Of a DNA stretch of 61,488 bases, positions 7,993-40,175 are shown in pieces. How positions within the stretch are numbered: the stretch's first letter is position 1; the number at the start of each line of letters is the position of its first letter. The stretch comes from a virus (Duplodnaviria; Heunggongvirae; Uroviricota; Caudoviricetes), in the IMG/VR virus record IMGVR_UViG_2908567220_000003; one strand, 5' to 3'. The translations under genes were made by a program, and so were the position numbers. A model generated the notes under the pieces. That model ran no database searches. It was not told the DNA's origin and saw nothing but the letters and a program-made list of their open reading frames with translations.

Positions 7993-8052
7993 TCCTCACG
8001 CTCCATAAACGACAAAACCGCCCGGAAGCGGTTTCACATAAAACGTTTTTCA

Positions 8053-9341: not shown

Positions 9342-9346
9342 GGGAT

Positions 9347-10045: not shown

Positions 10046-10401
10046 CAGTGAGTGACCTCTTCAAAGGTACAGTTAAAATCGGTATACATGGCATTATCCG
10101 AAATGCTCCACTCCCTGCAGACAACCCGGACAGTCCTGTTGTGTTTTGGCGGACGCCACAAAAAAGCACGAATCCCGGCATGACGGGATAAAAAACTGTC
10201 CAGCGCGGCACGGGAATATTCATCTGTGACACGAAATACTGGTTTAAACGTTTTCAGATCCGCATTCAGACCACCAGCCCGTCGCTGTTCATATCCGTCA
10301 CCAAACTTTACCGTAATAACTGATGGCTTTCGTGTCGTCTCCATCCCCTCACGGGGGATCCAGTTAAAAACTTCAGGCTCAGGCACTGTACAATCCTCCA
10401 T
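10045..10401 (-). CDS. M: minor tail protein M
   Basis: lambda gpM-like core (KFGDGYEQRRAGGLNADLKT); track start 10431 is TTG; ATG at 10401 or GTG at 10386 more likely, start uncertain. Confidence 0.7.
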   Translation of the reverse strand: MEDCTVPEPEVFNWIPREGMETTRKPSVITVKFGDGYEQRRAGGLNADLKTFKPVFRVTDEYSRAALDSFLSRHAGIRAFLWRPPKHNRTVRVVCREWSISDNAMYTDFNCTFEEVTH

Positions 10402-21002: not shown

Positions 21003-21082
21003 AAAACATCCCTGAAAGTAGGTGCCGGTAATACTGAAAATTTATTCCATTAAATGAGCATTGTCCTCTCTCATCCATTCCG

Positions 21083-22744
21083 TTACACACCATCAAACGC
21101 CGCAAGCCGCTCTTTGTGGCTGTCGCTCATATCGAATGCAAATTCCTCATGCTCTGCCTGGAATGTGCCAAACGCCATCAGCGCCGCAACGCTCGGGTCT
21201 ATCTTGTTGGATGATTTTTTCTTGTTCGGCTTGATATTGGCGTTCGCGTCACTCTGCATCACAACATTACTCATTGACCAGGCCAGCACCGGATCACCAC
21301 GATGCACAATCACCTTCCGGTTAACAAAAACTTCGAACGATTTCGCCGCCGGACTGAAACGAAGGTATGTTTGCGGGAACGGCTCCACCTCAAATCCTGC
21401 GCCCTGTAGCTGCGTCCTCAGGTGCGTGGCGTTCCATGTATCGAAGCCCACCAGCCTGATATTGAAATTTTCTGCATCTGCCATGATGTCATCACGGATA
21501 CGGTCATAATCAATGCAGTCACCCGGTGTTGTGCGTATCCAGCCCGCCTTTACCCACTGGCGATAGATGGCGCGGTTTTTATTGGCGGGGTTCTGTAGCT
21601 GAAATTCCGGCAGATAGTGACGGGAAACCAGCATAATCTTTTTACCGACCGGAAAGGCATAGCACACGCTGGAAATATCGCTGGTTGATGATAAGTCCAG
21701 CCCCGCGTAGCACTCCTGCCCGTATAAATCCGCCTCCGCGAACGTTCCGGCGCACTCCGCCCATGCACCGTTACCCATCCACGGCGTAGCCCCCTGACAC
21801 CAGATATTGAATCGCTTGGTGAGCATTTCCACCCACTGCGACGGAATACCCCGCGCTTTCTGGATGGTTGAGGCCAGTTTTTCACGATCGACGGAAACAT
21901 CGATATTGGGATTCGCCTTTATCCACATCGCCGGATCGTCAACCTCGCTTTCATCATCCAGCTCGTAAATCAGCACGAACATGGATTCGTTCACCTCTTC
22001 ACCATCCAGTATCTGGCAGCAATAGTCGTAGTGTTGTTTACAGGCTGAAACAACGTTGCTCCCCGATGTGGTGATGGCAAATAATAACCCCTCCGGACGC
22101 GCCCCCATTCCCAGTTCAAGCGCGGAATAAACCCCGTTGTCAGGGTGCAGGTGATATTCATCCACAATGGCAAGACTCGGGTTTGTACCTTCAATGGTTG
22201 CCGCTTTTGCTGCCAGTGGTTTTAACAGGCTGTTGGTTTTCGGGTGTATCACCTTGTGTGCCTGAATATTTACCCGCTTTCGTAACGGTCGGGATAAAAG
22301 GCACATCTGACGCGCATCATCAAACACGATCCGCGCCTGATCACGACTCACGGCGGCGGTGTAAATATCCTGCTGCCCGTTTTCCATAACCAGAAACCAG
22401 TTAGCCAGGATAGCGGCGACCGTGGATTTGGCATTTTTTCGCGGTACTTCAATGAATGCGCTGGTGTATTTGCGCCGCCCGGTGGCCTTAACCTTAAAGC
22501 CCAGGATGCACGCAAAGGCGAACTGCTGCCACGGCTCCAGCTCAATGGGGCTACCGCGCATTGCGCCTTTTACGTGCGGGCACACCCTGGAAAAGGCAAT
22601 AAACCGCTCCACGACCTCCGGATCGAACGTGTAAAGGGGGTTTTCAAGGTCAGAAAAATACCGTTTAACGGCCTGTTTCAGTCGTTTACAGGCCGTAATT
22701 TTGCCGTTTTTTACGCCTTCTGCGTACTCATGCCAGGCGGTCAA
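21083..22744 (-). CDS. terL: terminase large subunit (satellite copy, intact)
   Basis: 553-aa ORF with ATPase and nuclease regions; track start codon is TTG, overlaps terS end; start uncertain. Confidence 0.85.
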   Translation of the reverse strand: MTAWHEYAEGVKNGKITACKRLKQAVKRYFSDLENPLYTFDPEVVERFIAFSRVCPHVKGAMRGSPIELEPWQQFAFACILGFKVKATGRRKYTSAFIEVPRKNAKSTVAAILANWFLVMENGQQDIYTAAVSRDQARIVFDDARQMCLLSRPLRKRVNIQAHKVIHPKTNSLLKPLAAKAATIEGTNPSLAIVDEYHLHPDNGVYSALELGMGARPEGLLFAITTSGSNVVSACKQHYDYCCQILDGEEVNESMFVLIYELDDESEVDDPAMWIKANPNIDVSVDREKLASTIQKARGIPSQWVEMLTKRFNIWCQGATPWMGNGAWAECAGTFAEADLYGQECYAGLDLSSTSDISSVCYAFPVGKKIMLVSRHYLPEFQLQNPANKNRAIYRQWVKAGWIRTTPGDCIDYDRIRDDIMADAENFNIRLVGFDTWNATHLRTQLQGAGFEVEPFPQTYLRFSPAAKSFEVFVNRKVIVHRGDPVLAWSMSNVVMQSDANANIKPNKKKSSNKIDPSVAALMAFGTFQAEHEEFAFDMSDSHKERLAAFDGV

Positions 22745-23084
22745 GCTCGTCCTCTTCCTCTGTTTCCGGTGGATTTCTGCGGCGGCTTACCGGGTCAAAA
22801 CCCAGCAAAGAAGCCATTTTGATCATTATTCTTTCTGCGTCAGCCTTTGCGCTCAGGGCGGGGTTTCTGCTCTCACTGCCCTGACTGTTAACAATGCTGA
22901 ATCCGCGCGTCGCAAGGTCTTCGACGGCTTTGCGGTATATGGAGTAGTTAACGCAATACAGCTCCAGATTGCTCCAGTCGGCGGGGGTAAGGTCTTCCCG
23001 CCCGGAAAGCTGGCGCGATTTTTCCTTCCACTGCCTGACCGCGATTTCATCCAGGTAAGCGGGGGCTTTTGGTGGTCTTGCCAT
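22728..23084 (-). CDS. terS: terminase small subunit, P27 family (satellite copy)
   Basis: ATG at 23084 (MARPPKAPAYLDEIAV) inside track ORF 22728..23225; between HNH and terL. Confidence 0.7.
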   Translation of the reverse strand: MARPPKAPAYLDEIAVRQWKEKSRQLSGREDLTPADWSNLELYCVNYSIYRKAVEDLATRGFSIVNSQGSESRNPALSAKADAERIMIKMASLLGFDPVSRRRNPPETEEEDELDRLA

Positions 23085-23372
23085 GTTCTTTTTTCGCCCA
23101 ATTATTTTCAAAAAAATTCCCGTGCACAAAAATTTGAGGAGGCGGTCGGTGTCCGGCAGGGACGGTTTCGTCCTGAAAACCTCCCCCACCCCCTCTGACA
23201 GCCTCACCAGCGATTGCGAAAACATTCCATGACCTCGCGGTCACGGTCGGTTAATCGCTTCGGTGTGGTGCGTTCTGTGCGCCCTGTCCTGTTGACTTTG
23301 TGCCCTGTCTCCTGTGTCTTCCATAAGTCACGCTGCCTTATCAGTCCACGTATCAGCCTGTTTTGCTCCTGT

Positions 23373-23813
23373 TCAGTCATCATCGCCATACATCCAGTCG
23401 TTACGATGTGCCGCCCGTTCTTCCTGCTCGCGATACATGCCCGCCTTACGGTTCGCTTTCGTGGCTGGATCTTCCCGTGTCGTCTTACGGTTGTGGCACG
23501 TCTGGCACAATGCCTGGTGGTTCCACTCAGGCCAGAAGAGAACATCACCGCCGCCATTGATGGGAATGATGTGATCCACCACAAGAGCTGGCGTATAAAT
23601 CCCCTTAGCCAGACAACGCACGCATAACGGGTTTTTGCTCAGGTACAGGGCGCGGTATTTGTCCCACTGCCGGGAATACCCACGCGCGCGGCGGTGCCCC
23701 CGTCTGGCATCCTCTGCACGCCATGCAGCCCGCCTGTGCTCTTCACACTTGCCGGACTTCACGCGCTTATTACAGCCCGGCTCAGTGCATCGCCTTAATG
23801 GTTGCCACGGCAT
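23373..23813 (-). CDS. HNH endonuclease (packaging-associated, satellite copy)
   Basis: 146-aa ORF with Cys-rich HNH motifs (CHNRKTT), directly upstream of terS; ATG verified. Confidence 0.8.
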   Translation of the reverse strand: MPWQPLRRCTEPGCNKRVKSGKCEEHRRAAWRAEDARRGHRRARGYSRQWDKYRALYLSKNPLCVRCLAKGIYTPALVVDHIIPINGGGDVLFWPEWNHQALCQTCHNRKTTREDPATKANRKAGMYREQEERAAHRNDWMYGDDD

Positions 23814-24112
23814 CAGTACACCCCCACATCACGATAAACCGACCAGAGCGCAGAAATAGCCATAGGCAGTTCAGACTGTTCCACAGGTGAAACCGCTTCC
23901 CTGTTCTCGTACAGGAAAGCGATGTACATCAGGCAACCAACACGTATTGCCGGGGTAAATTCCAGCCCGTCTTCAAAACGTTTCCCGATATGCTTCTGGC
24001 AGGCTTCCAGCGCCGCATCGGTATACATTTTCAGAAGTTCGCCTTCTCCGGAAAAGTCATCAAGGCGAAGATGTGCCCTGACTTCATCAGGTGTAATTTT
24101 GTCTTCACTCAT
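23813..24112 (-). CDS. gp6-like head-tail connector protein (satellite copy)
   Basis: ATG at 24112 (MSEDKITPDEVRAHLRLDD) with AGGTGA RBS inside track ORF 23813..24199. Confidence 0.55.
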   Translation of the reverse strand: MSEDKITPDEVRAHLRLDDFSGEGELLKMYTDAALEACQKHIGKRFEDGLEFTPAIRVGCLMYIAFLYENREAVSPVEQSELPMAISALWSVYRDVGVY

Positions 24113-25319
24113 CTTTTTCACCTTTAATTTCCACAGTCTGCTTCCATGCCTGGCTGAACTCGTCGCCACCTTCACGCGGCGGCATTCCCTCACGCTCACG
24201 GGCTTCGTTCGGATTCATGATCCCGTTCTTAATCCCTTTCTCATACGTGGCGTAACGTTCGGTAGGGGTGGCGCGCAGTAAATCGGCTGAATCAAACTCA
24301 ACCAGATAACGGGTACCAGGTACGGGAGAAGCCACCAGCAAAGCGGCCTTGATTTGCTGTTCGAAGTTCGCCAGCCACGGACGCATTGTCATAGTCAGAA
24401 ACGCGCGGCTTGCCTCACTGAAATTGCTGTAGGTGCTGTTGCTGTATTCCTGAAGAAAAATCGGCGACACGTTGAACATACGGGCAATGTCTTCAATGGA
24501 GAAGCGACGGGAGGCCAGCCATTCAGCATCCTGGTTACTCATTCCCAGTTGCTTGTAATCCATGCCCCCTTCAAGGATTGGCGTTTTTCCGGCATTTTTC
24601 GCCCCCTTGTAGCGTTCCAGTGCGTCTAATGCCTGTTTACCTTTCACGCCGTCCAGCCATTCGCCTGACGTGATAATCCCTGCCGCCATCATGCCATCTT
24701 TCATAATGCTGGCTCCGTGGCGCTGTTGAGCAAGGCCAAGCCCCAGCGCCTCACGGCAAATCGTGACAGGGGAGCGCCCCAGAAAGCCATCATCCGAGGC
24801 ATAGCGGAGATGCAGAACTTCTTCCTGTAAATACGTGCGCACCGTTCCTGTACAGGGTTCGGTGATGGTATAGCGGTATTTGTGTGCGCCTGTGCGTTCC
24901 GGTACAACACACCCCGGCGCATAAGGATGAAGTGATTTTGGCTGCCCGTCCTGCCCCCACTCAATAACCGCATAGGCGTTACCGTTCAGCAGACAGTGAC
25001 GCATCATTGTGCGTTTAAACTGGTAAGGTGTCTGGCACGAATTAGGCTGCTCATTCAGCAGAATATCTACCGGATGACTGTCCAGCCATTCCCGCGCCTC
25101 CCTGCCCTTGTCATTACGTACCAGATACAGATAACACGGCATCGTGGCCACCGCCTCAGCGATGACAGAAACCGCGTTCATCACAGCAGGCAATGATTCA
25201 GCCGTCCCGGCAGAAACATATTCTCCGGATCCGGTATTCGGTACGCCGGACAGCGCCAGAAAATCATCAATGGACAGGTTACGTTGCTCGCTTTTTTTAC
25301 GACTAAAAGGCCACCACAT
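24105..25319 (-). CDS. portal protein, HK97 family (satellite copy)
   Basis: track ORF 24105..25409; ATG at 25319 just after protease stop. Confidence 0.85.
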   Translation of the reverse strand: MWWPFSRKKSEQRNLSIDDFLALSGVPNTGSGEYVSAGTAESLPAVMNAVSVIAEAVATMPCYLYLVRNDKGREAREWLDSHPVDILLNEQPNSCQTPYQFKRTMMRHCLLNGNAYAVIEWGQDGQPKSLHPYAPGCVVPERTGAHKYRYTITEPCTGTVRTYLQEEVLHLRYASDDGFLGRSPVTICREALGLGLAQQRHGASIMKDGMMAAGIITSGEWLDGVKGKQALDALERYKGAKNAGKTPILEGGMDYKQLGMSNQDAEWLASRRFSIEDIARMFNVSPIFLQEYSNSTYSNFSEASRAFLTMTMRPWLANFEQQIKAALLVASPVPGTRYLVEFDSADLLRATPTERYATYEKGIKNGIMNPNEAREREGMPPREGGDEFSQAWKQTVEIKGEKDE

Positions 25320-25320
25320 A

Positions 25321-25881
25321 TCACAACCCCGCCAGTTCAGCCCAGCGATGACGATTATTTCCTGCCGGGCGTAATTCAGGGTGCTGTGCAAACAACGAAC
25401 GGTGGGCAATCTCCACGCCAGATTCTGGATAAGCAGGCATCGACGTTATTGTGATTTCTCGGAGTTCAGCGGCGGTTACGGTACGCAAATACGGTTTTTG
25501 CGCGATATTCCATTCTTCGCATAATGCGCGAAAGCCAAAGCTCATTCCTGTAATGTCGCCACGCGACACCAGCGTGAGCACATCTTTTCCAAGCTGGGTA
25601 TCAGGCGGTGTCAGTTCAAAACGTAGCCCGGTGTTGTCCCCAGTCAGTACCAGAGTGCCGGATTTGGTGCGCCCCAGCAGTTGGGTATAGTCATGCTCAT
25701 ACAGGCAGCGCACATCATTACCCGCCGCCAGATAGTCAGCAAAAGCCCCCGGCGTGAACTGTTCGCGGAATTCGTCCCAGATAATTTCTGAAAGGCTGTT
25801 CCAGCGAACGGCATACCCCACCAGCTTTTTATTGCTGGCGGTCAGTTCAGATGTGCGGATTTCAAAATCGGTGTTTTTCAT
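25321..25881 (-). CDS. prohead protease, HK97 family (satellite copy)
   Basis: 186-aa ORF between MCP and portal; ATG verified. Confidence 0.85.
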   Translation of the reverse strand: MKNTDFEIRTSELTASNKKLVGYAVRWNSLSEIIWDEFREQFTPGAFADYLAAGNDVRCLYEHDYTQLLGRTKSGTLVLTGDNTGLRFELTPPDTQLGKDVLTLVSRGDITGMSFGFRALCEEWNIAQKPYLRTVTAAELREITITSMPAYPESGVEIAHRSLFAQHPELRPAGNNRHRWAELAGL

Positions 25882-25935
25882 CGGTGTACTCCATAAAGCT
25901 GAAAAAGGAGGCCGCAGCCTCCTCCTTACTCATGA

Positions 25936-27105
25936 CTAGCCAGCTTTCATTTCCAGAATTTTGATGGCGTTTGAATCCACCACACCACCGCCCAGATATT
26001 TATCCGTGTGGACCTTGTAGAATCCGGGTTCAGTAATGTTGTCCGGTCGGGTGCGAATCCCTGTTACATGATCAACGATGAAATAACCACGACTGAAATC
26101 GCCAACCGCTAGCGGTGCTTTTCCTGCGCCGATGTCCGGCATGGACTCCAGGCAGAAAACAGGACGACCAAGCAACATATCCGGCGCACCTTCTTTAAGG
26201 CTGTCGCGCCAGATATAATCGCCATTCTCATTTTTCAGCTTCTGTAGTGTCCCTGCCGTGCCCGAGTTCATCACCCAGACGGCATTTTTGCGGTATTTCG
26301 CTTTCAGCTTGTAGAGAATGTCGATCAGTTCGTCCGCTGTAATGGCGGTTCCACTTGCCGCTACCACTTTTTCAATGGTGCCAAAAGCGCGGGTTTTGTC
26401 ACTGGTCGCCGCACGGGTGTAAGCCATGAAGCCTTTCGGCTTGCCGTTACCGTCGCCATTAACAAAATCATCCTCTTCGGTGCTGGCGAACGTGTCGGCA
26501 ATTTCGGAGGATAACCAGCCCAGAATATCCACCTCTGAAAAATCCAGGATTTCCTGCGTGGTTTTCGGGTAGGCGTAGATCGGATTCAGCTTGATGGTTA
26601 CACGTTCAATTTTCGGGGTGTTGGTTTCACTACGTGCGCTGCCTTCTGTGCCTCGTCCTACAGTTGCGCCGCCAGTGGAAACCAGTTTCTGAAACTCATT
26701 TGATTTTGCGGTCTTCACGGTCGCGATCACGCGCATAACACTGTCATCCTGTAGCTGGCGCATGACTTCGCGATCAAGCTCAGGAATTACGGTATATCCG
26801 CCATCCCTGCCGCTGTCAGTGCTGGTGGTCAGTGATCGCACATCTCCGGTTACGATGTAGTTACGCAATTCATCAGATGATAATTTCTGGATGCCCGTTC
26901 CTGGCTTGCTGCGTTCTTCATCAGCCACAGACTCGAGGCGGGAAATTTCTGTGTCGAGGGAATCGGCTTTTGCACGCAGTTCATCAAACTGTTTGCCCTC
27001 GTCATCGTTCAGGCTGCGGTTTTCACTGTCGGCTTTTTCCAGCAGGGATCGCATCTGGTTTTTCAGGGCGGTTTTTTGCTGGCGGAGTTCGATTAATTTC
27101 TTCAT
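25936..27105 (-). CDS. major capsid protein, HK97 family (satellite copy)
   Basis: 389-aa ORF with coiled-coil delta domain; ATG verified; paralog of 16633..17850. Confidence 0.85.
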   Translation of the reverse strand: MKKLIELRQQKTALKNQMRSLLEKADSENRSLNDDEGKQFDELRAKADSLDTEISRLESVADEERSKPGTGIQKLSSDELRNYIVTGDVRSLTTSTDSGRDGGYTVIPELDREVMRQLQDDSVMRVIATVKTAKSNEFQKLVSTGGATVGRGTEGSARSETNTPKIERVTIKLNPIYAYPKTTQEILDFSEVDILGWLSSEIADTFASTEEDDFVNGDGNGKPKGFMAYTRAATSDKTRAFGTIEKVVAASGTAITADELIDILYKLKAKYRKNAVWVMNSGTAGTLQKLKNENGDYIWRDSLKEGAPDMLLGRPVFCLESMPDIGAGKAPLAVGDFSRGYFIVDHVTGIRTRPDNITEPGFYKVHTDKYLGGGVVDSNAIKILEMKAG

Positions 27106-27391
27106 GAAGGTTTTCTCGTATTGGTTAAGATTCAGGACGTGAAACCAACACGGAGGGAGCGCCGCCCGACACTCTCGGCATCTCGCAGATCAACCCGGCA
27201 TCGCGCAGGGGGTCAGGCGGCATTGTGGCGGCTCACGTCTGAGTGCCACACGCCAACATATACATAAAAATCAGTATGTAAACACCTGTCAGTAAGGCCG
27301 AACAACCACGAAAAAACACGAACAAATAATTTACAAAAGAAGTAAACCATGGCCTATTATTGCTACCTCTGACTACAACAAAGGACGCATC

Positions 27392-27898
27392 ATGAATTTA
27401 AGCGCAATGGTATACCCTGATACTTTCATAATTAATGGCGAATCATTTAAAGGTAAAAGAAACGCAAAAGAAAACAAGGTATTAATTCCATATACAAATG
27501 AACCGGAAGTAACTATTGGTCAACACATTATCCAGTGTGTCGGTAAAAACGAGATAAATCTAAAAATTATAGATATGAAGTTGCTTCCCAATGGAACCCT
27601 CAGACAGGGAACCAACCATCCAAATATGTTGACGCTCTATATTGAAAATATCACGGGAAATGAACATATGACGCCACCTAAAAGTAATACATTTAACATT
27701 GGTTCAATTAGTGGTAATCAAGTGCAGATAGGTGAGCATAACCATATGCTGGTAAACATCAGCATCACTGAACTGGTTGAAAAAGTCTCTAAATCGGGGG
27801 ATGTACAAGCCAAATCAGTATTAAAGCAGTTACTGGAAAACAGTACCGTTGCCAGCATTGTTGGGGCTGGCGCAAGTGCCTTAATAGGCTTACTGTAA
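27392..27898 (+). CDS. hypothetical protein with C-terminal hydrophobic tail (satellite accessory gene)
   Basis: 168-aa ORF, ATG with AAAGGA RBS, AT-rich, opposite strand to the rest of the element. Confidence 0.5.
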   Translation: MNLSAMVYPDTFIINGESFKGKRNAKENKVLIPYTNEPEVTIGQHIIQCVGKNEINLKIIDMKLLPNGTLRQGTNHPNMLTLYIENITGNEHMTPPKSNTFNIGSISGNQVQIGEHNHMLVNISITELVEKVSKSGDVQAKSVLKQLLENSTVASIVGAGASALIGLL

Positions 27899-27904
27899 AA
27901 AAAT

Positions 27905-27924
27905 GGCCTGGATTTTACCAGGCC
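27905..27924. terminator. bidirectional Rho-independent terminator between convergent genes
   Basis: stem GGCCTGG / CCAGGCC with 6-nt loop, flanked by A7 upstream and T-rich downstream. Confidence 0.6.
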
Positions 27925-27933
27925 TTTATCATT

Positions 27934-28182
27934 TTACCGTTTCACGGGATCCCGCATTCTGCTTCTTAGTTTCCACAGGTATTCGATCATCGCTTCCACC
28001 TGCTCACGGTTGGTTGCGAAAATTTCCCCGGTCAGTGAGCTGCGCAGAAAATCATGATGATCCACAACAAACAACGCATCGGAAGAAAGCAGACGGCGAT
28101 ATTTTTTTGCTGTCGTGGTTTCCAGATCATCAAAACCATGAAACTTTTTATGTTGCTGAACTTCTTCAAATGTCACAGGCAT
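27934..28182 (-). CDS. hypothetical protein
   Basis: ATG at 28182 with AGGAGG RBS inside track ORF 27934..28221. Confidence 0.5.
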   Translation of the reverse strand: MPVTFEEVQQHKKFHGFDDLETTTAKKYRRLLSSDALFVVDHHDFLRSSLTGEIFATNREQVEAMIEYLWKLRSRMRDPVKR

Positions 28183-28227
28183 GTTTCCTCCTGCTACCAC
28201 GATACCAGAAACAGTTAACAACCGTTA

Positions 28228-28512
28228 TCAATTATCCCCTTTTTTTTTCGGGTAGTTCCTGAACATCTCACCGCCAGGTTTCTGTAAGCCCATCCCGGTA
28301 TGTGTGCGGTTTATGGCCTCTTTCAGTATTCCGAAATTATCCGGTATGACTGGTTGGCGCGCTGCCTTACGGATACATTCCGCGCGACGCTTTGCCACCT
28401 GTTCGCGCTCCTTGTCAGTGCTCACCAGCCACATAACATCAGCCCAACGTGCCGCCGCTCTCCGGTACAGCCCTTTAGCCTCCAGTTCTTCCGCTTTGCT
28501 GTCTTTAATCAT
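28228..28512 (-). CDS. PerC-family transcriptional activator-like protein
   Basis: ATG at 28512 (MIKDSKAEELEAKGLYRRAAARW); assignment from remembered PerC N-terminal motif. Confidence 0.5.
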   Translation of the reverse strand: MIKDSKAEELEAKGLYRRAAARWADVMWLVSTDKEREQVAKRRAECIRKAARQPVIPDNFGILKEAINRTHTGMGLQKPGGEMFRNYPKKKGDN

Positions 28513-28527
28513 GCTGTACCTCACTGC

Positions 28528-28953
28528 TTAAAACGGTATCCCGTCCCCGTACGGATCATCGTGCTGGCCTGTCTGTTGTTTTGCCCTGTTCAGTGCGTCA
28601 GTAGCCTGGCCCTGCTGGCCTTTTTTGCCGCCCGGTCGCGCCGTTCGCGCACTGATTACGCTGTCTGCGATGACCTGCCAGCCCTGCCGCATTTCGCCGT
28701 TCTGGCCTGTCCACTGGCTTACCTGCATGTTACCCGCCACACTCACCAGTTCGCCTTTCTGGTGTTTTGCCAGTGCATCGGCCTGTCTGCCAAACGCCAG
28801 GACGGATAACCACATCGTCGCCGTTCCGTCATCTGCCTGGCTGCACGGCAGGGGAACCGCCATACTCGCCATAGCCATTTGTGTCCCCTTGCTGGTGGTC
28901 TTTAACTGCGGGTCAGCCACCAGCCGCCCGTAAGCCGCTATCTGTGCTGTCAT
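28528..28953 (-). CDS. ssb: single-stranded DNA-binding protein (SSB-like OB fold with C-terminal DIPF tip)
   Basis: 141-aa ORF ending GDGIPF, Gly/Gln-rich linker; ATG verified. Confidence 0.65.
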   Translation of the reverse strand: MTAQIAAYGRLVADPQLKTTSKGTQMAMASMAVPLPCSQADDGTATMWLSVLAFGRQADALAKHQKGELVSVAGNMQVSQWTGQNGEMRQGWQVIADSVISARTARPGGKKGQQGQATDALNRAKQQTGQHDDPYGDGIPF

Positions 28954-29017
28954 GCTGTCTGTTCTCCGGTTTTAACGTTGATTGTTACGCTTGTTTACAC
29001 CCTTACGGTGAAATCCT

Positions 29018-29140
29018 GCGGGTTATAATCGCACTTTTGCGGGTTATAACTGCCGTTTTGCGGGTTACGTGCGGGTTACTGATTTCCTTTTTATTCATAC
29101 AGTTAATGCACTTATACACAGGATAACCCGCATAACCCGC
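29018..29140. repeat. iteron cluster 2 (candidate replication origin): four direct GCGGGTTA(T/C) repeats, AT-rich spacer, two inverted copies
   Basis: direct copies at 29018, 29039, 29060, 29071; AT-rich 29081..29120; inverted ATAACCCGC at 29123 and 29132; downstream of primase/helicase gene. Confidence 0.7.
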
Positions 29141-29163
29141 AACTTTTCACCTCACACAGGGGG

Positions 29164-31284
29164 TTAATCTTCTGCCTCAGGCTGGAACATCAGCACGTAA
29201 AAAACATGCTGCTTCCCCCCAATTTTGCCGAGCGCCTTTTTCTTGTAACGGCGATCGTTACCCGCTTCCAGCATTCCGGCAGCACTCAACGCGCGGGCAA
29301 AGTGAGACGGATTAAATCCCTGTGCTATCTCACCCTCAAATACATGCGGGAACGTGTAAAAACGGAACTCGTCATCTTCGTTTCTGATACTCCCCTTTCT
29401 GTATCCGGCAAGCTCTTTAATCGGTAAATCACGCTCGTCGGTGTTGGGCCACGGAAGGTATCTGCTGAATCCGAACGACGCTAAAAAAGCCTCTGCCTGT
29501 TCAACCATCTGTTTAAACTCCCTGTTACCCGTGCCGAACTCCTTCACCCAGGCATTAAAATTATGCTGAATGGCATCGCGGCACGCCTGAACATCCCAAC
29601 CAGTAATATGGACGGAAAGCACCAGCGCCGACTCCAGCATGGCGAATCGTTCCCCCACACGGTGAACCTGTTCGCCGTAACTCTCCGGTATCAGGTTGCG
29701 CCACCGTTCACGGCATGCCCTTACCGTATCCTTTGCCTCCTGCTGGTGGTCTGCCAGCCATTTAACCCATTCACGCCCCGCCGCCCCGTGATTTTCTGTC
29801 CAGGCATCCTTTAACGCGTCTGCGTGTGCCTTTCCGGTGCTGTATTCGTGAAACTGCGTGGCTTTTTCCATTGGCACGTTAAGCAGGCGGACAAGCTGCC
29901 CCGCCTTGACTTTTATCCCCTCCGTTTTGAGGAATGTCTCAACGTCCATTTCTCCGGTGCTGATTGCCACCGTGCGCCAGTGTTTGATCTCCCTGTTGCC
30001 GCCGTCCTTCGCCCCCTGTAATTTCCCCGAACCGTTAAACAGCGTATAAGCCGACGTGGACACTTCCCGCGCGTTTCCGGCCTGACCTATTTCATCCAGG
30101 GGTAATAGCCCGTCATTGTGCGCCTCTGCCTCGTTGGCGATGCCTAACGCTGTACCGTACCAGGTCAGCCGTTGCGCGTCCGGCTCTCCCCATAAACTGG
30201 ATGCGATGTTCTGTGTGGTGGTTTTCCCTGCCGATGACTGTTCGAAAAGATGTACCCCGAAGCCGTCAGCACCCACCAGCCCGATTAATGGTGCGGATAA
30301 CGATACCGCCACACCCAGCATCATGGACGGATTACCACCAGCCAGCCGCGCAACGGTATCGCGCCAGCCCTCCGCCGTTCCTGCCACAGAATAGCCATTA
30401 ACGGCAGCCGTTTTTCCGGTAAACAGGATCGGTTTTTCAGACTCACCAATGACTGAACCGTCCGGCATGATGTACGCACCAAAATGCCAGCCCGTTGTTG
30501 TGCTTAACTGCCATTCCTCATGGTTTCCGCTTAACTGCATCCAGTCAGCCAGGATAGCCCTGTATTTGCCGTTAGTTGTTACGTTAAGGCCGTGGTCTTT
30601 CAGCAACCGCCAGCCGTCACGGTCGCCAATGCCCCCGCACGGAACCGCCATTGTGATGACTTCATGGTTTGCGGGTTTCTTCCAGCGCATCACGCGGTAA
30701 TGCTCTTTGCCGATTGTCCCCGTTCCCAGTAGTTCAAGCGGGGAACATAACCACGTCTCAGGCCGGATAATTTCGCCTGACTGCTTGTCAACTTTGGGCG
30801 TTACCCAGAAAACACCATCGGCGCGACTTTCAACGCGGGGCTTTAATTCATCATCGCCCTGGCTTTCTGTGATTTTTTTCTTTAAGGGCAACACCAGACT
30901 TTCCCCGCGCTCGTATTCGTCTTTCAGCCGGGCAAGCTGCGGTGTCCAGTCCTCCAGTAGTTCACCGTTCTCGTCACAAAAACTGGCTTCCTTAACACCA
31001 GCCACTGCCAGCAGGGTTTCAATCTGTAACGCCTGTCTGTCATCCAGCTTTCCGGCACGTCTGACCATGGCGCGTAACCGTCCATCATCCACAATACGCA
31101 GGTTTTCCAGATTACCCAGGTCACGCCGCCCGAGATAAACAGGTGGTATTTTGTCGCCGCGCTTTCTGGCTTCTCCGCCCTGCATGTAATGCTCTGCGTG
31201 GCTGTATGCGTCATCCCCCGCAAAAATCACTGCATCCTCGCCTTTATCTTTCGGTAACAGTTTTACGTTCGGTGCCAGTTTCAT
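29164..31284 (-). CDS. replication primase/helicase (DUF927-type P-loop NTPase)
   Basis: 706-aa ORF with Walker A (SSAGKTTT); ATG verified; adjacent to iterons. Confidence 0.65.
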   Translation of the reverse strand: MKLAPNVKLLPKDKGEDAVIFAGDDAYSHAEHYMQGGEARKRGDKIPPVYLGRRDLGNLENLRIVDDGRLRAMVRRAGKLDDRQALQIETLLAVAGVKEASFCDENGELLEDWTPQLARLKDEYERGESLVLPLKKKITESQGDDELKPRVESRADGVFWVTPKVDKQSGEIIRPETWLCSPLELLGTGTIGKEHYRVMRWKKPANHEVITMAVPCGGIGDRDGWRLLKDHGLNVTTNGKYRAILADWMQLSGNHEEWQLSTTTGWHFGAYIMPDGSVIGESEKPILFTGKTAAVNGYSVAGTAEGWRDTVARLAGGNPSMMLGVAVSLSAPLIGLVGADGFGVHLFEQSSAGKTTTQNIASSLWGEPDAQRLTWYGTALGIANEAEAHNDGLLPLDEIGQAGNAREVSTSAYTLFNGSGKLQGAKDGGNREIKHWRTVAISTGEMDVETFLKTEGIKVKAGQLVRLLNVPMEKATQFHEYSTGKAHADALKDAWTENHGAAGREWVKWLADHQQEAKDTVRACRERWRNLIPESYGEQVHRVGERFAMLESALVLSVHITGWDVQACRDAIQHNFNAWVKEFGTGNREFKQMVEQAEAFLASFGFSRYLPWPNTDERDLPIKELAGYRKGSIRNEDDEFRFYTFPHVFEGEIAQGFNPSHFARALSAAGMLEAGNDRRYKKKALGKIGGKQHVFYVLMFQPEAED

Positions 31285-31580
31285 TTTTTACCTCTGGATG
31301 CGCTGAGCATGCTTTTTATTTTCTTAATATTTTCCCGTGCTTTTTCCCTGCTGGTGGGCTTACCGCGTGTTGCGTTCTGTACCAGAGAAAAATCACGCCG
31401 GAACTGATAAACAGGCATCACGCAGTCATAGCCGTACCCATCACGGCGGTAAGTAACGCACCGTCCCGCCACGCTTTTAATCGTTACCGTGCCGCCGTAG
31501 TTATCCCGGAAAATATCGCCGGGGCGGATTTCAGGCCGAGCGGGGCCGCTGGCAGTAAAGCCAGAAATTTTCTGTTTCAT
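31281..31580 (-). CDS. hypothetical protein
   Basis: 99-aa ORF, ATG verified, stop overlaps primase start. Confidence 0.4.
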   Translation of the reverse strand: MKQKISGFTASGPARPEIRPGDIFRDNYGGTVTIKSVAGRCVTYRRDGYGYDCVMPVYQFRRDFSLVQNATRGKPTSREKARENIKKIKSMLSASRGKK

Positions 31581-31585
31581 GGTTT

Positions 31586-31819
31586 TTATTTCCCGGTGTG
31601 TTGCTCTTTATATCTGTCGTGCAAGATGTCTATTTCTTGCAGTTCATTTATTACAGGCTCAAGAAGCGTTATTAATGCTGTTGCAATATTGCTGTTGCGT
31701 TTATCTCTTTCATTATCGCCAAGCGTTTCAAGCCATAAGCGCAATATTTCAAGCATGTTTTCACTGTAAGCAAGTGCGCTGTATGCATGATCTACTGTGT
31801 CATTGTAAATATCATGCAT
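31586..31819 (-). CDS. hypothetical protein
   Basis: 77-aa ORF, ATG verified. Confidence 0.4.
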   Translation of the reverse strand: MHDIYNDTVDHAYSALAYSENMLEILRLWLETLGDNERDKRNSNIATALITLLEPVINELQEIDILHDRYKEQHTGK

Positions 31820-31822
31820 GGC

Positions 31823-32023
31823 TCACCCCCCCTGAATATTCGCGTTAATCATTCCGACACGCTCTGCGAGTTCCTGTAATGATTCCCTTGTTGCGACAAT
31901 TGCTTCATCTGGCAGGTGGTAATTACTCACCACGCGACCTTTATCCACATTGACTAGCAACTGCCCGGTGAATTTCTCACGAAACTGGATGCGGTTAAGG
32001 TCGGTAAGTGACAGGTTAATCAT
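31823..32023 (-). CDS. hypothetical protein
   Basis: 66-aa ORF, ATG verified. Confidence 0.4.
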   Translation of the reverse strand: MINLSLTDLNRIQFREKFTGQLLVNVDKGRVVSNYHLPDEAIVATRESLQELAERVGMINANIQGG

Positions 32024-32219
32024 GGTGTACCCCCTGACGAATACGGGCGGCGAATACCATCACGCAGCCAGCCGGGGATTGCTGGCGTGCTTCCTGTTCG
32101 CTGGTGGCCTCAATGGTAATCACGCGCGGTTGTGCCGTGCTCAGGGCGATAAAACGCCAGATATATTTATTCAGGTTGTGCGAGTCCCGCCCTTGCGGGT
32201 GTGTGGTATGATTTCTCAT
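32016..32219 (-). CDS. hypothetical protein, first gene of leftward operon from the divergent control region
   Basis: ATG at 32219 with GAGGT RBS; only the 3-prime 67 codons of track ORF 32016..33089 are plausible. Confidence 0.4.
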   Translation of the reverse strand: MRNHTTHPQGRDSHNLNKYIWRFIALSTAQPRVITIEATSEQEARQQSPAGCVMVFAARIRQGVHHD

Positions 32220-32316
32220 AGCTACCTCGATACTCTTGCTATCGTTGGTGGTTAGACGCCCTGCATGTGTTGCGAGCACTGCGGGGCGTTGCTTAATTTG
32301 AGTGACAAAACTCAAA

Positions 32317-32395
32317 CTGTGCGCACAGATTAAAATCATGTGTGCGCACATGTCAATACTTAACATCTCATTTTTTTTGCTGTATTGTGTGCGCC
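32317..32395. promoter_or_regulatory. divergent promoter/operator region with TGTGCGCACA palindromes
   Basis: perfect 10-bp palindromes at 32319..32328 and 32341..32350 (23 bp centre to centre) plus TGTGTGCGCC half-site near 32386. Confidence 0.6.
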
Positions 32396-32424
32396 CATAA
32401 AGTCCATTTAAGTGAGGTGCATCA

Positions 32425-32622
32425 ATGTCTAGCGGTAACACAAACAACAAATCAGCAAAGAAAAATATTCGATTCCCACATGAGCTTATAGATGGGATTG
32501 ATGCCAGCGTTGAACAAGAAAAATTAACTAATCCTAGTGCTAATTTTTCCGCATGGGTCTTAGATGCCTGTGGACGCAAATTAAAATATGAACAGCGCCG
32601 GAAGGCCAAAGAATCAGAATAA
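32425..32622 (+). CDS. ribbon-helix-helix-type DNA-binding regulator (candidate satellite master repressor)
   Basis: 65-aa ORF, ATG with GTGAGGTG RBS; NIRFPHELIDGIDASVEQ pattern fits beta-strand plus helix of RHH fold. Confidence 0.45.
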   Translation: MSSGNTNNKSAKKNIRFPHELIDGIDASVEQEKLTNPSANFSAWVLDACGRKLKYEQRRKAKESE

Positions 32623-32664
32623 TCACTATCAGCGCCGTGGTGTGAGTAACTACGGCGCATTGCT

Positions 32665-32853
32665 ATGCAGGACAACACAATGACCGATAAAGAATTGACC
32701 AAAACATTATCACCGACACGGAAAAGACGGCGCAGAAAGATAGAGCATGAATCAGAAAGATTCGCACCTTGTTCGTTTGCTCTTGAGAAATTCCTTAAAG
32801 AGCGCAGGAAAAAGCTCTCGTTGCAAACCTTGGAACGAACCAAATCTGACTGA
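32665..32853 (+). CDS. hypothetical small basic protein
   Basis: 62-aa ORF, ATG verified; followed by GC hairpin and T-run. Confidence 0.35.
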   Translation: MQDNTMTDKELTKTLSPTRKRRRRKIEHESERFAPCSFALEKFLKERRKKLSLQTLERTKSD

Positions 32854-33233
32854 TCACATTGCCCACCAGCCGCAAATGTGGCATTGTTGGTGATGCTTTT
32901 GTTTTCCCTTGTTCCCACTGGCGACCCTTTTGCGGTCGCCTTTGTTTTGCCTGTTATCCGGCAATAGTGGCGCTTCGTCACCTGTCTGATATAATTCCAC
33001 AGCTTATATTCATTTTTTGCGCAGTAGGTTAATTGTTCGCAAGGGCGCTCCGGCAACGGGGCGCTTTTTGTTTTTACCCACCAGCACAATAAAAATCTTC
33101 ATTTTCCATTTTTGTAAAATTTCATGCTTTCCGGACGACTGGTCATATGTCATTTTTTAGCAGAAGATTTTGCCTTGCTGGTGGGTAGCTTCCCGGTCAA
33201 CACGATGTACCGTATAATCAACACCGCGTGTGG

Positions 33234-33812
33234 TTACTGAATACGCTCACCAAAGTAAAACTCAGGCTGGTATTCACGTATCAGCCTTTTTTCTTCTTCC
33301 TCCAGCTCACGCTTTTTGCGCTTACATGCCTGTAGCTCCCTCCCCTTCTCACTGGCACTTATCTGGTATTGCTCTTTGCGGCGGGAAAAATCCTGTAATG
33401 CGCCCCACGGGATACCATAAGCCCCCGTTTTTCTGATACCCGGTATCACATTTCTGAATACCCAGTTACTGAAACGATGAGCAAATGTGCCAGGCGTCGT
33501 TGCTTTGCGGCTGCGGGCTATTAGTTTGTAGAAACCTGATTCGGAGATAATGCTCATATTCTGATTTCCTCCGGGGGTGTAAGTTAAATTTACTCCCTTT
33601 TCGTCATCATCAAGCATCTGCAACGCCGTACGCGAATTGGTCAGTTCCAGCGCAGCACAAACATCCTTTGCAACAAACCACGGATCGCCGTTTAGATACA
33701 CCACACGAACATCCACGCCATCAAAGCGCAGAACGACCAGATCACGAATATCACAGAATTTTTTCACATGACGTGCGTCACCCTTGCCCGTCACGGCAAT
33801 ATTTTTATTCAT
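33234..33812 (-). CDS. Bro-N domain protein (antirepressor-like)
   Basis: 192-aa ORF with N-terminal Bro-N-like region and C-terminal charged coiled coil; ATG verified. Confidence 0.65.
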   Translation of the reverse strand: MNKNIAVTGKGDARHVKKFCDIRDLVVLRFDGVDVRVVYLNGDPWFVAKDVCAALELTNSRTALQMLDDDEKGVNLTYTPGGNQNMSIISESGFYKLIARSRKATTPGTFAHRFSNWVFRNVIPGIRKTGAYGIPWGALQDFSRRKEQYQISASEKGRELQACKRKKRELEEEEKRLIREYQPEFYFGERIQ

Positions 33813-33869
33813 TGCTTTTTACCTCACATACAAAAAACCCCGCATTGCGTGGTGCGGGGTTGTCGGTAA

Positions 33870-34148
33870 TTACTTATTGGCGTTTTTGTATGGGCTGTTT
33901 ACTTCCTTTACTCCTGGCGGATGCATAACCCACCAGAGCACATCAGAGAGCAACCAGGAAACAGACACTTTCCCTAAATGAGCACGAGCAGGAAATGCTC
34001 CCTCCTGTTCAAGTACCCAACGTCTGCTTCTTGAAAGCCCGGTACGATTGGCACACTCATGTTCGCGTATACGGCGATCATACGGTTCGCCATGATCTTT
34101 CAGAATCTGAATGCGTTCTTCGGGTGTAGGATAAATAAATTTTTGCAT
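33870..34148 (-). CDS. alpA: AlpA-family transcriptional regulator
   Basis: ATG at 34148 with AGGTGA RBS; motif GLSRSRRWVLEQEGAFPARAHLGKVSVSWLLSDV; downstream of integrase. Confidence 0.7.
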   Translation of the reverse strand: MQKFIYPTPEERIQILKDHGEPYDRRIREHECANRTGLSRSRRWVLEQEGAFPARAHLGKVSVSWLLSDVLWWVMHPPGVKEVNSPYKNANK

Positions 34149-34379
34149 AAAAATATCACCTATAAAAAAACCCGCCAAAAGACGGGTTGATTATATCTCA
34201 TTTAATTTAGCTCAGGGTTTCCATTCACCTTTTACCCATTCCAGCACCTCAGATAAGCGCCAGACTTTTGTTTGTGGGCCAATACATATTTTTCGTAACC
34301 GTCTCATTTAAACCGTCTTTCGCCTCCCTTTCCTGTTTCCGATACTAATGTCCATTTTCGCAGTAAAGGGACATTTAAG

Positions 34380-35030
34380 ATGAATGCACGAAAAGCGGTA
34401 CTGGCAGACAATCCGGAATTGATCCTGCGTGTGCTACAGCTGAGATTTGACGAGTCACTGTCGTACCCGCGCATTTCTGCGCAGACCGGTGTCAGCAAAA
34501 CCGCCATTTTTTCTCTGGTGAGGCGATTTCACCAGGTATTCACTGACTGGCCTCTTTCCGGTGAATATTCCTGCGGGCAACTGGCCCGGGCTCTTTTCCC
34601 GGGGCGATACCCTTCAGCCCCGACCGTGACTCAGCCTGTGAAAGCAGAGAAACCCCGCCGGAACCGATTTTCACCGGAGTTTAAATGGAGACTGGTTCAG
34701 CAAACTCTTTTACCCGGTGCCTGTGTCGCACAAATAGCTCGAGAGAATGGAATTAACGATAACCTGCTCTTTAACTGGCGGCATCTCTGGCGTAACGGTG
34801 GCCTGCAACCGCCCGGCGAACATGAAACATCGCTACTTCCCGTGACGTTAACTCCGGAGCCGGATAATAAAATCCCGGCACCAGTGCAGATACCTGAACA
34901 GATAAATACACTGCCAGACAGTCTGTGCTGCGAGCTGGTTCTGCCGGCCGGAACTCTCAGGCTGAAAGGTGAACTGACACCGGCGTTATTACAGACACTT
35001 ATCCGCGAAATGAAAGGGAGCAGCCACTGA
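34380..35030 (+). CDS. IS66-family accessory protein (orf1, HTH)
   Basis: 216-aa ORF, first of three in the IS. Confidence 0.7.
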   Translation: MNARKAVLADNPELILRVLQLRFDESLSYPRISAQTGVSKTAIFSLVRRFHQVFTDWPLSGEYSCGQLARALFPGRYPSAPTVTQPVKAEKPRRNRFSPEFKWRLVQQTLLPGACVAQIARENGINDNLLFNWRHLWRNGGLQPPGEHETSLLPVTLTPEPDNKIPAPVQIPEQINTLPDSLCCELVLPAGTLRLKGELTPALLQTLIREMKGSSH

Positions 35031-35377
35031 TGATATCTCTCCCTGCCGGTTCGCGTATCTGGCTGGTTGCCGGTATCACCGATATGCGAAATGGCTTTAA
35101 CGGCCTGGCCTCAAAAGTTCAGAACGTCCTGAAGGATGACCCGTTCTCCGGGCATCTGTTCATCTTCCGCGGACGCCGGGGTGACCAGATAAAAGTGCTG
35201 TGGGCTGACAGTGACGGACTGTGCCTCTTCACCAAACGCCTGGAGCGGGGCCGCTTCGTCTGGCCGGTCACCCGCGATGGAAAGGTTCACCTTACTCCGG
35301 CTCAGTTGTCCATGCTTCTCGAAGGCATCGACTGGAAGCACCCGAAACGAACGGAACGCGCTGGCATCCGCATATAA
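35030..35377 (+). CDS. tnpB: IS66-family TnpB (orf2)
   Basis: 115-aa ORF, ATGA overlap with orf1, typical IS66 orf2 size and sequence. Confidence 0.8.
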   Translation: MISLPAGSRIWLVAGITDMRNGFNGLASKVQNVLKDDPFSGHLFIFRGRRGDQIKVLWADSDGLCLFTKRLERGRFVWPVTRDGKVHLTPAQLSMLLEGIDWKHPKRTERAGIRI

Positions 35378-35396
35378 CCCGTTGTAAAGTGAGGAT

Positions 35397-36968
35397 ATGG
35401 ACACCTCACTTGCTCATGAGAATGCCCGCCTGCGGGCACTGTTGCAGACGCAACAGGACACCATCCGCCAGATGGCGAAATACAACCGCCTGCTCTCACA
35501 GCGGGTGGCGGCTTATGCTTCCGAAATCAACCGGCTGAAGGCGCTGGTTGCGAAACTGCAGCGCATGCAGTTCGGTAAAAGCTCAGAAAAACTTCGCGCT
35601 AAAACCGAACGGCAGATACAGGAAGCCCAGGAGCGAATCAGCGCACTTCAGGAAGAAATGGCGGAAACGCTGGATGAGCAATATGACCCGGTACTGCCAT
35701 CCGCCCTGCGCCAGTCTTCAGCCCGTAAGCCGTTACCGGCCTCACTTCCCCGTGAAACCCGGGTCATCCGGCCGGAAGAGGAATGCTGCCCGGCCTGTGG
35801 TGGTGACCTCAGTCCTCTGGGGTGTGATGTGTCAGAGCAACTGGAGCTTATCAGCAGCGCTTTTAAGGTTATCGAAACACAACGTCCGAAACTGGCCTGT
35901 TGCCGGTGCGACCATATCGTGCAGGCACCAGTACCTTCAAAACCCATTGCACGCAGTTATGCCGGAGCGGGGCTTCTGGCTCATATCGTCACCGGGAAGT
36001 ATGCAGACCATCTGCCGTTATACCGCCAGTCAGAAATATACCTTCGTCAGGGCGTGGAACTGAGCCGCGCCACGCTGGGGCGCTGGACCGGTGCCGTTGC
36101 TGAACTGCTGGAGCCGCTGTATGACGTGCTGCGCCAGTATGTGCTGATGCCCGGTAAAGTCCATGCGGATGATATCCCCGTTCCGGTCCAGGAGCCGGGC
36201 AGTGGTAAAACAAGAACTGCCCGGCTGTGGGTCTATGTCCGTGATGACCGTAACGCCGGTTCACAGATGCCCCCGGCGGTCTGGTTCGCGTACAGCCCGG
36301 ACCGGAAAGGTATCCATCCACAGAATCACCTGGCCGGTTACAGCGGTGTGCTTCAGGCAGATGCTTACGGTGGTTACCGGGCGTTATACGAATCCGGCAG
36401 AATAACGGAAGCCGCGTGTATGGCCCATGCCCGGAGAAAAATCCACGATGTGCATGCAAGAGTGCCAACCGACATCACCACGGAAGCCCTGCAGCGTATC
36501 GGTGAACTGTATGTCATCGAGGCAGAAGTCCGGGGATGTTCAGCAGAACAGCGTCTGGCAGCAAGAAAAGCCAGAGCGGCTCCACTGATGCAGTCACTGT
36601 ATGACTGGATACAGGAACAGATGAAAACACTGTCGCGTCACTCGGATACGGCAAAAGCGTTCGCATACCTGCTGAAACAGTGGGAGGCCCTGAACGTGTA
36701 CTGCAGTAATGGCTGGGTGGAAATCGACAACAACATCGCAGAGAACGCCTTACGGGGAGTGGCCGTAGGCCGGAAAAACTGGCTCTTCGCGGGTTCCGAC
36801 AGCGGTGGCGAACATGCGGCGGTGTTGTACTCGCTGATCGGCACATGCCGTCTGAACAATGTGGAACCAGAAAAATGGCTGCGTTACGTCATTGAGCATA
36901 TCCAGGATTGGCCGGCAAACCGGGTACGCGATCTGTTGCCCTGGAAAGTTGATCTGACCTCTCAGTAA
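35397..36968 (+). CDS. tnpC: IS66-family transposase (orf3)
   Basis: 523-aa ORF with leucine-zipper-like N-terminus and Cys-rich motif. Confidence 0.8.
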
Positions 36969-37122
36969 ATATCAATACGGTTCTGGCGAGCCGCTTACTA
37001 TTTTTCGTGGAAATTTTCCTTCCTTTTCAAGTAACGATCTGTGTCTCCTGCCAAGAGCGGTTAACCATGCACATTCATCTTCCTTAATCATCCTGTCGAT
37101 TGTTTCATCATTTTCAAGTTCT

Positions 37123-38346: not shown

Positions 38347-38518
38347 GTGATTTATAACCCGTTTTTGCAATACACAGTGCAATACACAAATGATGAAAAC
38401 AGCCAGAACCTTCCAGAAAAAACAAAAACGACGAACAAGAAAAAAATCTTTTTCTTTCATTTGGTTACTAAAAAAATCAGGACAGGTCGCACTGTTGTTA
38501 CGGCGTGATGTTACTTTC

Positions 38519-40028: not shown

Positions 40029-40175
40029 AATTGGTTTTACCTATCAATCATTTAATCACATTCCAATAAAAAGTTTTCGAACCTGCGGCGATGCGAGGAA
40101 AGGTCAGGCGGCGGTACTGAGCAGCCAGGGTTGCAGAGATTTGACCTGCCCCTCCCCTACAGATGGGAACTGTTA

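Follow-up and report, generated by a model that had tools for sequence, protein, structure and literature searches.

A probable capsid-forming satellite integrated in the large-terminase gene of an HK97-type prophage

Introduction

The subject of this study is a block of about 6 kb, at positions 21083-27105, in a 61,488-nucleotide stretch of Caudoviricetes DNA (IMG/VR virus record IMGVR_UViG_2908567220_000003), hereafter called the window, which contains a prophage with an HK97-type head and an intact lambda-type tail module. We conclude that this block is very probably the late module of an integrative satellite, which by its gene content is a capsid-forming phage-inducible chromosomal island (cf-PICI) of the EcCIEDL933 lineage and by its way of integration falls among the helper-embedded PICIs (HE-PICIs), in the site group A:Terminase_1:246. 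The satellite spans positions 20561-38525 and lies within the gene for the large terminase subunit (terL) of the surrounding prophage. It measures about 15.25 kb, and 17.96 kb here, where it has received an insertion sequence (IS) of the IS66 family.

Two published classes of satellite are thus brought together. EcCIEDL933 builds its own small capsids, packages itself with its own HNH endonuclease, small terminase subunit (TerS) and large terminase subunit (TerL), and takes only tails, from the helpers HK106 and HK446; its alpA gene is needed for induction, and its transfer ceased or fell severely whenever one of the module genes was lost (Alqurainy et al. 2023, Cell Host Microbe; 10.1101/2022.09.08.507074). 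As cf-PICIs have capsids of their own and need only the tails of a helper, identical islands spread across species, while HE-PICIs show satellites that control their helper in cis. The window presents a clean example of both in one.

Results and discussion

The capsid and packaging module

Genes of the module were assigned by profile searches of the window open reading frames (ORFs) against Pfam and PHROGs. Seven co-oriented genes, all of them intact in the ORF map of the window, occupy positions 21083-27105 on the minus strand, and in the order of transcription they encode the major capsid protein (MCP), prohead protease, portal, connector, HNH endonuclease, TerS and TerL (Table 1). The initial annotation, which was made from the letters alone, had proposed these seven genes at the same positions, on the same strand and in the same order, and the profiles identify every one of them. 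For the connector, the Pfam gp6-like family matches at just 9e-4, under its gathering score, and the protein is recognised by PHROG 40, 'head-tail adaptor Ad1'; its gene overlaps that of the portal by 8 nt. An ORF of 61 amino acids between the HNH and terS genes had been overlooked. It is 80% identical to the EcCIEDL933 ORF in the matching position, and on sequence grounds it is to be counted as a member of the module. A possible identity for this small ORF is 'hypothetical gene 1792' in the cf-PICI paper; in EcCIEDL933, transfer was severely reduced when gene 1792 was lost (Alqurainy et al. 2023; 10.1101/2022.09.08.507074). The set had also been called complete, which is right for the seven named genes and overstated for the whole, as a head-closure gene is missing.

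The absence of tail genes from the element, likewise claimed at the outset, is borne out. No tail, tape-measure, fibre or lysis families were found by Pfam or PHROGs in the other ORFs of the element, and RefSeq annotates neither tail nor lysis genes in its identical counterpart in Escherichia coli 042.

It is the comparison with EcCIEDL933 that carries the reading of the element as a cf-PICI, which the initial annotation had already offered, correctly as far as it went, with no mention of the location in terL or of the published HE-PICI class. The two satellites are nearly equal in size (15.4 kb in EcCIEDL933 and 15.25 kb in the element), neither has tail or lysis genes, and they have one order of genes in common from int to terL: int, alpA, Icd-like, DUF4222, DUF927 primase, single-stranded DNA-binding protein (SSB), PerC, MCP, protease, portal, connector, HNH, small ORF, terS and terL. 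From terL to the connector the nucleotide identity is 87.5%, and across the module the identity of the proteins ranges from 57% to 93.5%, with TerL at 93.5%, TerS at 88%, HNH at 84%, portal at 81%, MCP at 63%, protease at 62% and adaptor at 57%; outside it, the DUF927 protein is 82% identical and the integrase 42%. EcCIEDL933 is chromosomal, between phoQ and roxA, whereas the element lies within the prophage terL, and the low identity of the integrases fits this difference of integration site. Moreover, homologues of the segment from terL to the adaptor occur in 538 of 5426 complete E. coli genomes, EDL933 being included at 87.5% nucleotide identity.

Regarding the characters by which a cf-PICI is recognised, the element has a size within the range of about 10-18 kb (15,245 bp in E. 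coli 042), an integrase, AlpA and replication genes of its own, the expected order of the module and no tail or lysis genes. However, of the two genes that join head and tail only the Ad1 adaptor is present; in the scheme of SatelliteFinder, variants without one of 11 core components are still cfPICI, of 'Type B'.

Integration in the prophage terL

In this copy the satellite is 17,958-17,965 bp long, the range reflecting the ways of counting the duplicated 7-bp core, and the IS with its target duplication accounts for 2,712 bp of this length. When the flanks are joined at the TTGGTAA core, they give an uninterrupted TerL frame of the prophage (...ARVNFFTKHMNVWVTAESAW...), and the 222-bp attB reconstructed in this way aligns in one piece, at 100% identity, within intact terL genes. 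At least 80% of this attB is covered in 901 of the 5426 complete E. coli genomes, and the occupied attL junction is present in 35 genomes. Close relatives of the element were found at exactly the same terL site in four independent genomes, namely 042, NRZ96606, NRZ106056 and APEC17, and in the last of these the same site is occupied although the portal, protease and capsid genes of the prophage differ. Because four independent genomes hold relatives there, one of them in a differing prophage, the terL site is the target of the integrase and no accident. In every locus inspected the site is either empty or holds this element; it lies within a prophage gene, so that the cf-PICI criterion of a site that prophages never occupy is hardly applicable.

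The way of integration is that of HE-PICIs, in which the attP core is flanked on both sides by a doubled motif tgTGTATTGCantgTGTATTGCa and which share the orientation of the late operon (Tommasini, Mageeney and Williams 2023, PMC10111431). The insertion disrupts a late gene of the prophage, its terL, with no replacement sequence supplied, all core genes of the element are co-oriented with the prophage late operon, and the doubled TGTATTGC motif that defines HE-PICIs is carried at both ends of the element. The near edges of the doubled motif stand about 79 and about 135 bp from the core centres, compared with 81 +/- 2 and 132 +/- 2 bp in PMC10111431, where the manner of measuring may differ.

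The missing head-closure gene and the state of this copy

A Phage_HCP head-closure gene lies between portal and adaptor in NRZ106056, APEC17, EDL933 and vB_KppS-Ant, and it is absent in the element, where tblastn with the Phage_HCP protein of a relative gave nothing significant at any place. Compared with NRZ106056, the closure locus of the element has 121 bp in place of 466 bp, and the adaptor diverges in its first third. In addition, the IS at 34295-36998 splits the integrase-proximal one of two AlpA-family genes inside its helix-turn-helix domain; the intact paralogue is the one closer to EcCIEDL933 AlpA. A second copy of the IS, in the early region of the prophage, is 100% identical to the first, and because of this identity two recent transpositions are suggested in this lineage.

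Several points have to be held against the proposed identification. One of the eight canonical genes of the cf-PICI module, that for head closure, is absent, which weighs because EcCIEDL933 loses its transfer, or has it severely reduced, without each module gene. The split alpA paralogue may have fixed this copy in place, with a prophage terL that stays broken for good. Induction, excision, small capsids and the borrowing of tails are all carried over from homologous systems, and the authors of the HE-PICI study failed to recover virions from their model composite (PMC10111431).

The most serious alternative, which we hold to be unlikely but by no means negligible, is an inert fossil derived from a cf-PICI, in which neither the satellite nor the prophage can form particles. 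The lost closure gene, the interrupted AlpA-family gene together with the identical IS in the prophage early region, and the broken terL of the prophage are all what such a fossil would have. Nevertheless, all seven ORFs of the module are intact, and so is the AlpA paralogue most like that of EcCIEDL933, while the closure-less junction is a clean one, with the 8-nt overlap noted above, and recurs in 143 complete E. coli genomes, where it is combined with two or more different integration modules; this speaks for a variant that works. As the direct junction of adaptor and portal is found in so many genomes, including the chromosomal cf-PICI of strain AST19, the closure-less form is evidently not a private lesion. 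What is more, an inert state would concern the present copy only and not the identity of the element.

Returning to the cf-PICI reading, the closure-less variants probably use the closure protein of the helper, for which the Phage_HCP protein of the surrounding prophage is a candidate. The adaptor and connector set the tail specificity of cf-PICIs (published cf-PICI work). The closure proteins of two relatives (loci L003, 9707-10045, and L004, 9709-10047) are 62% identical to the helper prophage's own (15892-16230), far above the 25-41% of the other pairs of module and prophage proteins, and this value fits either exchange or convergence at the interface where tails dock.

We put forward more tentatively, and with the expectation that it is rather wrong than right, the notion that the terL-embedded, closure-less form is a distinct strategy of satellites, in which a cf-PICI sits in the terminase of its own tail donor and has shed the closure gene in favour of the helper's. 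If this is true, helper DNA could not be packaged before the satellite has left, late transcription of the helper would run on into the satellite, and the satellite would draw on the helper for a head-completion protein in addition to tails; it would thus be costly to the helper, as against the commensal relation reported for EcCIEDL933. Such a strategy is nowhere explicitly stated in the literature searched.

Origin of the module

Between the element and the resident prophage, the amino acid identity is 31-33% for TerL (over the prophage fragments), 27% for TerS, 41% for HNH, 29% for the portal, 38% for the protease and 25% for MCP, the connector has no significant blastp match among the prophage proteins, and there is essentially no nucleotide similarity between the two sets. 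The two head and packaging sets are thus to be taken as distant paralogues, in agreement with the initial annotation, which had called them paralogous yet clearly divergent and had seen a threat to its view in a recent duplication. A recent duplication of the prophage head module is ruled out, because amino acid identities of 25-41% go with no similarity at the DNA level.

In the phage collection, MCP and TerL have matches of 61-83% only to a few non-canonical records, three of which are of satellite size (10.7-16.5 kb; vB_KppS-Ant with 16.5 kb, and Pasteurella Pmp7 and Pmp8 with 10.7-15.3 kb), one a 3.8-kb fragment and one a 106-kb record. Genuine phages come next, at no more than 37% identity for both proteins. 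This ceiling agrees with the published claim that the capsid and terminase genes of cf-PICIs form deep lineages separate from those of phages. The region of the resident prophage from head to tape measure is 98-99% identical to sequenced phage records.

One might suppose that the module was recently captured from the helper as a backup of interrupted late genes, as has been proposed for HE-PICIs near the integration site (PMC10111431), and the head-closure gene of the relatives, far closer to that of the helper than is the rest of the module, would speak for this. However, we consider such a capture very unlikely: the divergence from the resident prophage genes given above is too deep, the gene order of the module is unlike that of the prophage, and the module is 87.5% identical in nucleotides to that of EcCIEDL933, at a chromosomal site with another integrase, and 98% identical to that of the chromosomal AST19 cf-PICI. 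Since it is close to these two modules and far from that of the prophage, the module is better explained as an old satellite lineage which recombined onto an HE-PICI integration module, and helper exchange is plausible for no other genes than those of the tail interface.

That the block is instead what remains of a second, degraded HK97-like prophage, inserted into the first and then stripped of its genes for tail and lysis, is very improbable. In favour of this are the ordinary phage families of the module proteins, the frequency of nested prophages and of decay in E. coli, and the IS activity seen in the window. Against it, the att boundaries are clean, the size of 15.25 kb is conserved across genomes, the order of int, AlpA, Bro, primase and late genes is that of a satellite and not the early and late order of a prophage, synteny is kept with the experimentally proven satellite EcCIEDL933, the module occurs in 538 complete genomes and is tail-less in all loci inspected, and its MCP and TerL do not exceed 37% identity to any genuine phage.

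Other genes of the satellite

From the integrase end, the satellite is made up of the tyrosine integrase, the two AlpA-family regulators, a Bro-N protein, Icd-like and small ORFs, the DUF4222 and DUF927 proteins, SSB, a PerC-family regulator and the module (Table 1).

Table 1. Features of the satellite and of the prophage around it, with positions in the window
Feature	Position	Strand	Evidence or remark
TerL, 553 aa	21083..22744	-	TerL_ATPase 4e-26, TerL_nuclease 2e-52
TerS, P27 family	22728..23225 (longest ORF); RefSeq start 23084 (118 aa)	-	Terminase_4 4e-23
Putative cos region, intergenic, upstream of terS	23085..23203	-	conserved 20-mer at 23170-23189
Small conserved ORF, 61 aa, between HNH and terS	23204..23389	-	phrog_3173
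HNH endonuclease, 146 aa	23373..23813	-	Pfam 9e-10; phrog_144 4e-45
Ad1 head-tail adaptor / gp6-like connector	23813..24199; RefSeq start 24112 (99 aa)	-	PHROG 40 1e-28
Portal	24105..25409; RefSeq start 25319 (404 aa)	-	Pfam 8e-93
HK97-type prohead serine protease, 186 aa	25321..25881	-	Peptidase_S78 4e-45
HK97-fold MCP, 389 aa	25936..27105	-	Phage_capsid 4e-71
Accessory ORF, 168 aa, AT-rich patch (GC ~0.43)	27392..27898	+	phrog_5789, function unknown
PerC-family regulator	28228..28524	-	profile search
SSB	28528..28953	-	profile search
Replication zone: DUF927 primase/helicase-like protein	29164..31284	-	profile search; 82% to EcCIEDL933 homologue
Replication zone: DUF4222 protein	31281..31580	-	profile search
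Bro-N domain protein ('Bro zone')	33234..33812	-	profile search
AlpA-family regulator, intact, 92 aa	33870..34148	-	Phage_AlpA; 58% to EcCIEDL933 AlpA
IS66-family IS (tnpA, tnpB, tnpC)	34295..36998	+	8-bp target duplication TATTTTTC
Tyrosine integrase, P4-type, 415 aa	37123..38370	-	Arm-DNA-bind_3, Phage_integrase domains
Left attachment core TTGGTAA	20561..20567	.	junction of prophage terL C-terminal fragment and element
Right attachment core TTGGTAA	38519..38525	.	junction of element and prophage terL N-terminal fragment
Doubled arm-type motif GTGTATTGCgctGTGTATTGC (reverse complement shown), terL-side copy	20643..20663	-	matches tgTGTATTGCantgTGTATTGCa
Doubled arm-type motif, integrase-side copy	38367..38387	-	
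Prophage terL C-terminal fragment (nuclease domain), ~245 codons	19831..20567	-	
Prophage terL N-terminal fragment, 342 codons	38519..39546	-	
Prophage head-closure protein (Phage_HCP)	15892..16230	-	candidate trans-supplied substitute
Second IS66-family copy, ~2.7 kb, in hypothetical gene of prophage early region	~47688-50393		8-bp target duplication GAAAGTGC

The accessory ORF at 27392-27898 is found in 042, NRZ96606 and NRZ106056 and is absent from APEC17. It stands where the replication module gives way to the capsid module, next to a bidirectional hairpin (27905-27924), and its position looks like a slot for accessory genes. Neither PADLOC nor Pfam gave a match that would assign a defence function to it or to the other unassigned ORFs. 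The element has only a P4-type integrase, AlpA and Icd-like genes in common with P4-like satellites: the families of Psu, Delta and Sid were not found by Pfam or PHROGs among the element ORFs submitted, and neither P4-type immunity RNAs (C4/isrK) nor any other Rfam family was found in 20300-38800 at E <=0.1. A scan for promoters and terminators gave only matches at the consensus level, for example a promoter-like site at 27282-27255 upstream of MCP and the hairpin at 27905-27924 just mentioned, and was not used as evidence.

An ORF of 807 amino acids (37123-39546, minus strand) joins the N-terminal fragment of the prophage TerL in frame with the integrase, across attR and the arm-site motif. 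It is open in four of five loci and frameshifted in NRZ106056, and RefSeq calls over-long integrases in the terL-embedded loci. A genuine fusion protein was considered and rejected: the frameshift in NRZ106056 means that it is not conserved, and it is probably an artefact of annotation, a problem already flagged for TerL::integrase ORFs (PMC10111431). As for the profiles, PHROG 9, named 'terminase large subunit', matches the integrase too: its positions 690-811 align with the C-terminal part of that protein (E 3e-25), and it is suggested that fusion ORFs of this kind, from terL-embedded satellites, contaminate the PHROG 9 profile. There are practical effects on annotation as well, since prophage finders will call a single 57-kb 'prophage' and PGAP-style tools will yield the TerL::integrase ORF.

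A possible mode of action

The P4-type tyrosine integrase has placed the satellite at the 7-bp TTGGTAA core within terL. The steps that follow are modelled on the experiments with EcCIEDL933 and with the HE-PICI 11capE, the element itself being known here from its sequence. Upon SOS induction the composite prophage would excise and replicate, and an AlpA-dependent excision of the satellite would restore the prophage terL. The satellite would then replicate from its own origin and assemble small capsids from its own proteins, into which its HNH, TerS and TerL would cut and package the cos-bounded satellite genome. The filled heads would be joined, via the adaptor of the satellite, to the tails of the surrounding prophage, and the closure protein of the helper would probably be borrowed too, as the satellite has no closure gene.

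Comparison with known satellites

Regarding the novelty of the element, it was catalogued before, in the genome of E. coli 042 (FN554766), as the HE-PICI Eco33.15.A_Terminase_1_246 (FN554766.1/2250958-2235714), inside the prophage Eco33.57.zinT|mtfA and with the identity block ttaccaa (PMC10111431). Because this copy is listed there and both the cf-PICI and the HE-PICI class are published, the element is already known, it adds little as a discovery, and the joining of the two classes is a small synthesis. The main text of PMC10111431 does not describe the terL-embedded group as capsid-forming, and in the literature searched the two classes are linked only by citation, with no explicit statement that terL-embedded HE-PICIs are cf-PICIs. 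The value for biology lies rather in the question whether a closure-less, terL-embedded cf-PICI needs more than the tails of its helper and whether it restrains helper packaging.

The 042 element is 100% identical to the window from 20400 to 34296, the point of the IS insertion, and beyond the IS the stretch of int, the N-terminal part of terL and terS (36996-40527) is 98.1% identical. The prophages around the two elements are 85-98.6% identical (5534-20400 and 41396-56438 of the window), and both IS copies are absent in 042, so that the window is no part of 042 but stems from another, related genome. These figures would fit a recent move of the satellite from one related helper prophage to another or, alternatively, recombination of the prophage around it.

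Among the cf-PICIs, that of E. coli AST19 has a packaging module 98.2% identical in nucleotides to that of the element and, like it, a direct junction of connector and portal with no head-closure gene. It is not embedded in a prophage but chromosomal, between allC and allE, and it differs in its integrase, attachment site and primase, and in a gene of the ProQ/FinO family that replaces PerC. The 16.5-kb record vB_KppS-Ant (LR881103.1), from an induced lysate, has the same order of the module, with TerL and MCP 82.8% and 75.3% identical to those of the element; unlike the element it has gp9, a gene resembling that for head closure, and behind terL a large accessory gene, and its integrase and early genes differ. 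At 2036-4333 of this record, directly after terL, a 'tail length tape measure protein' of 765 amino acids is annotated; no relative has a tail gene right after terL, and this product is more likely a misnamed accessory gene. The linear record begins just before terS and ends just past the small ORF that follows HNH, and its final 20 bases recur without change at 23170-23189 of the window. The coincidence of this end with the 20-mer is no more than a hint that cos probably lies between the small ORF and terS, near 23170, and in that case the order in the packaged genome would be terS, terL, int ... primase ... MCP, protease, portal, adaptor, HNH.

As to the HE-PICIs, the zones named Integration, Bro, Replication and Late, four in all, are common to them and the element. 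The HE-PICI that has been followed by experiment, 11capE, lies in a capsid gene, is 11 kb long, has no terS and is presumed to use the packaging machinery of its helper; its excision after induction of the helper was shown to restore the late gene (PMC10111431). The element differs from it in having the whole cf-PICI set of capsid and terminase genes as its own, and from EcCIEDL933, with which the order of genes is the same from int to terL, in its Bro-N gene, its two AlpA paralogues, its lack of a head-closure gene and the IS66-family insertion in this copy.

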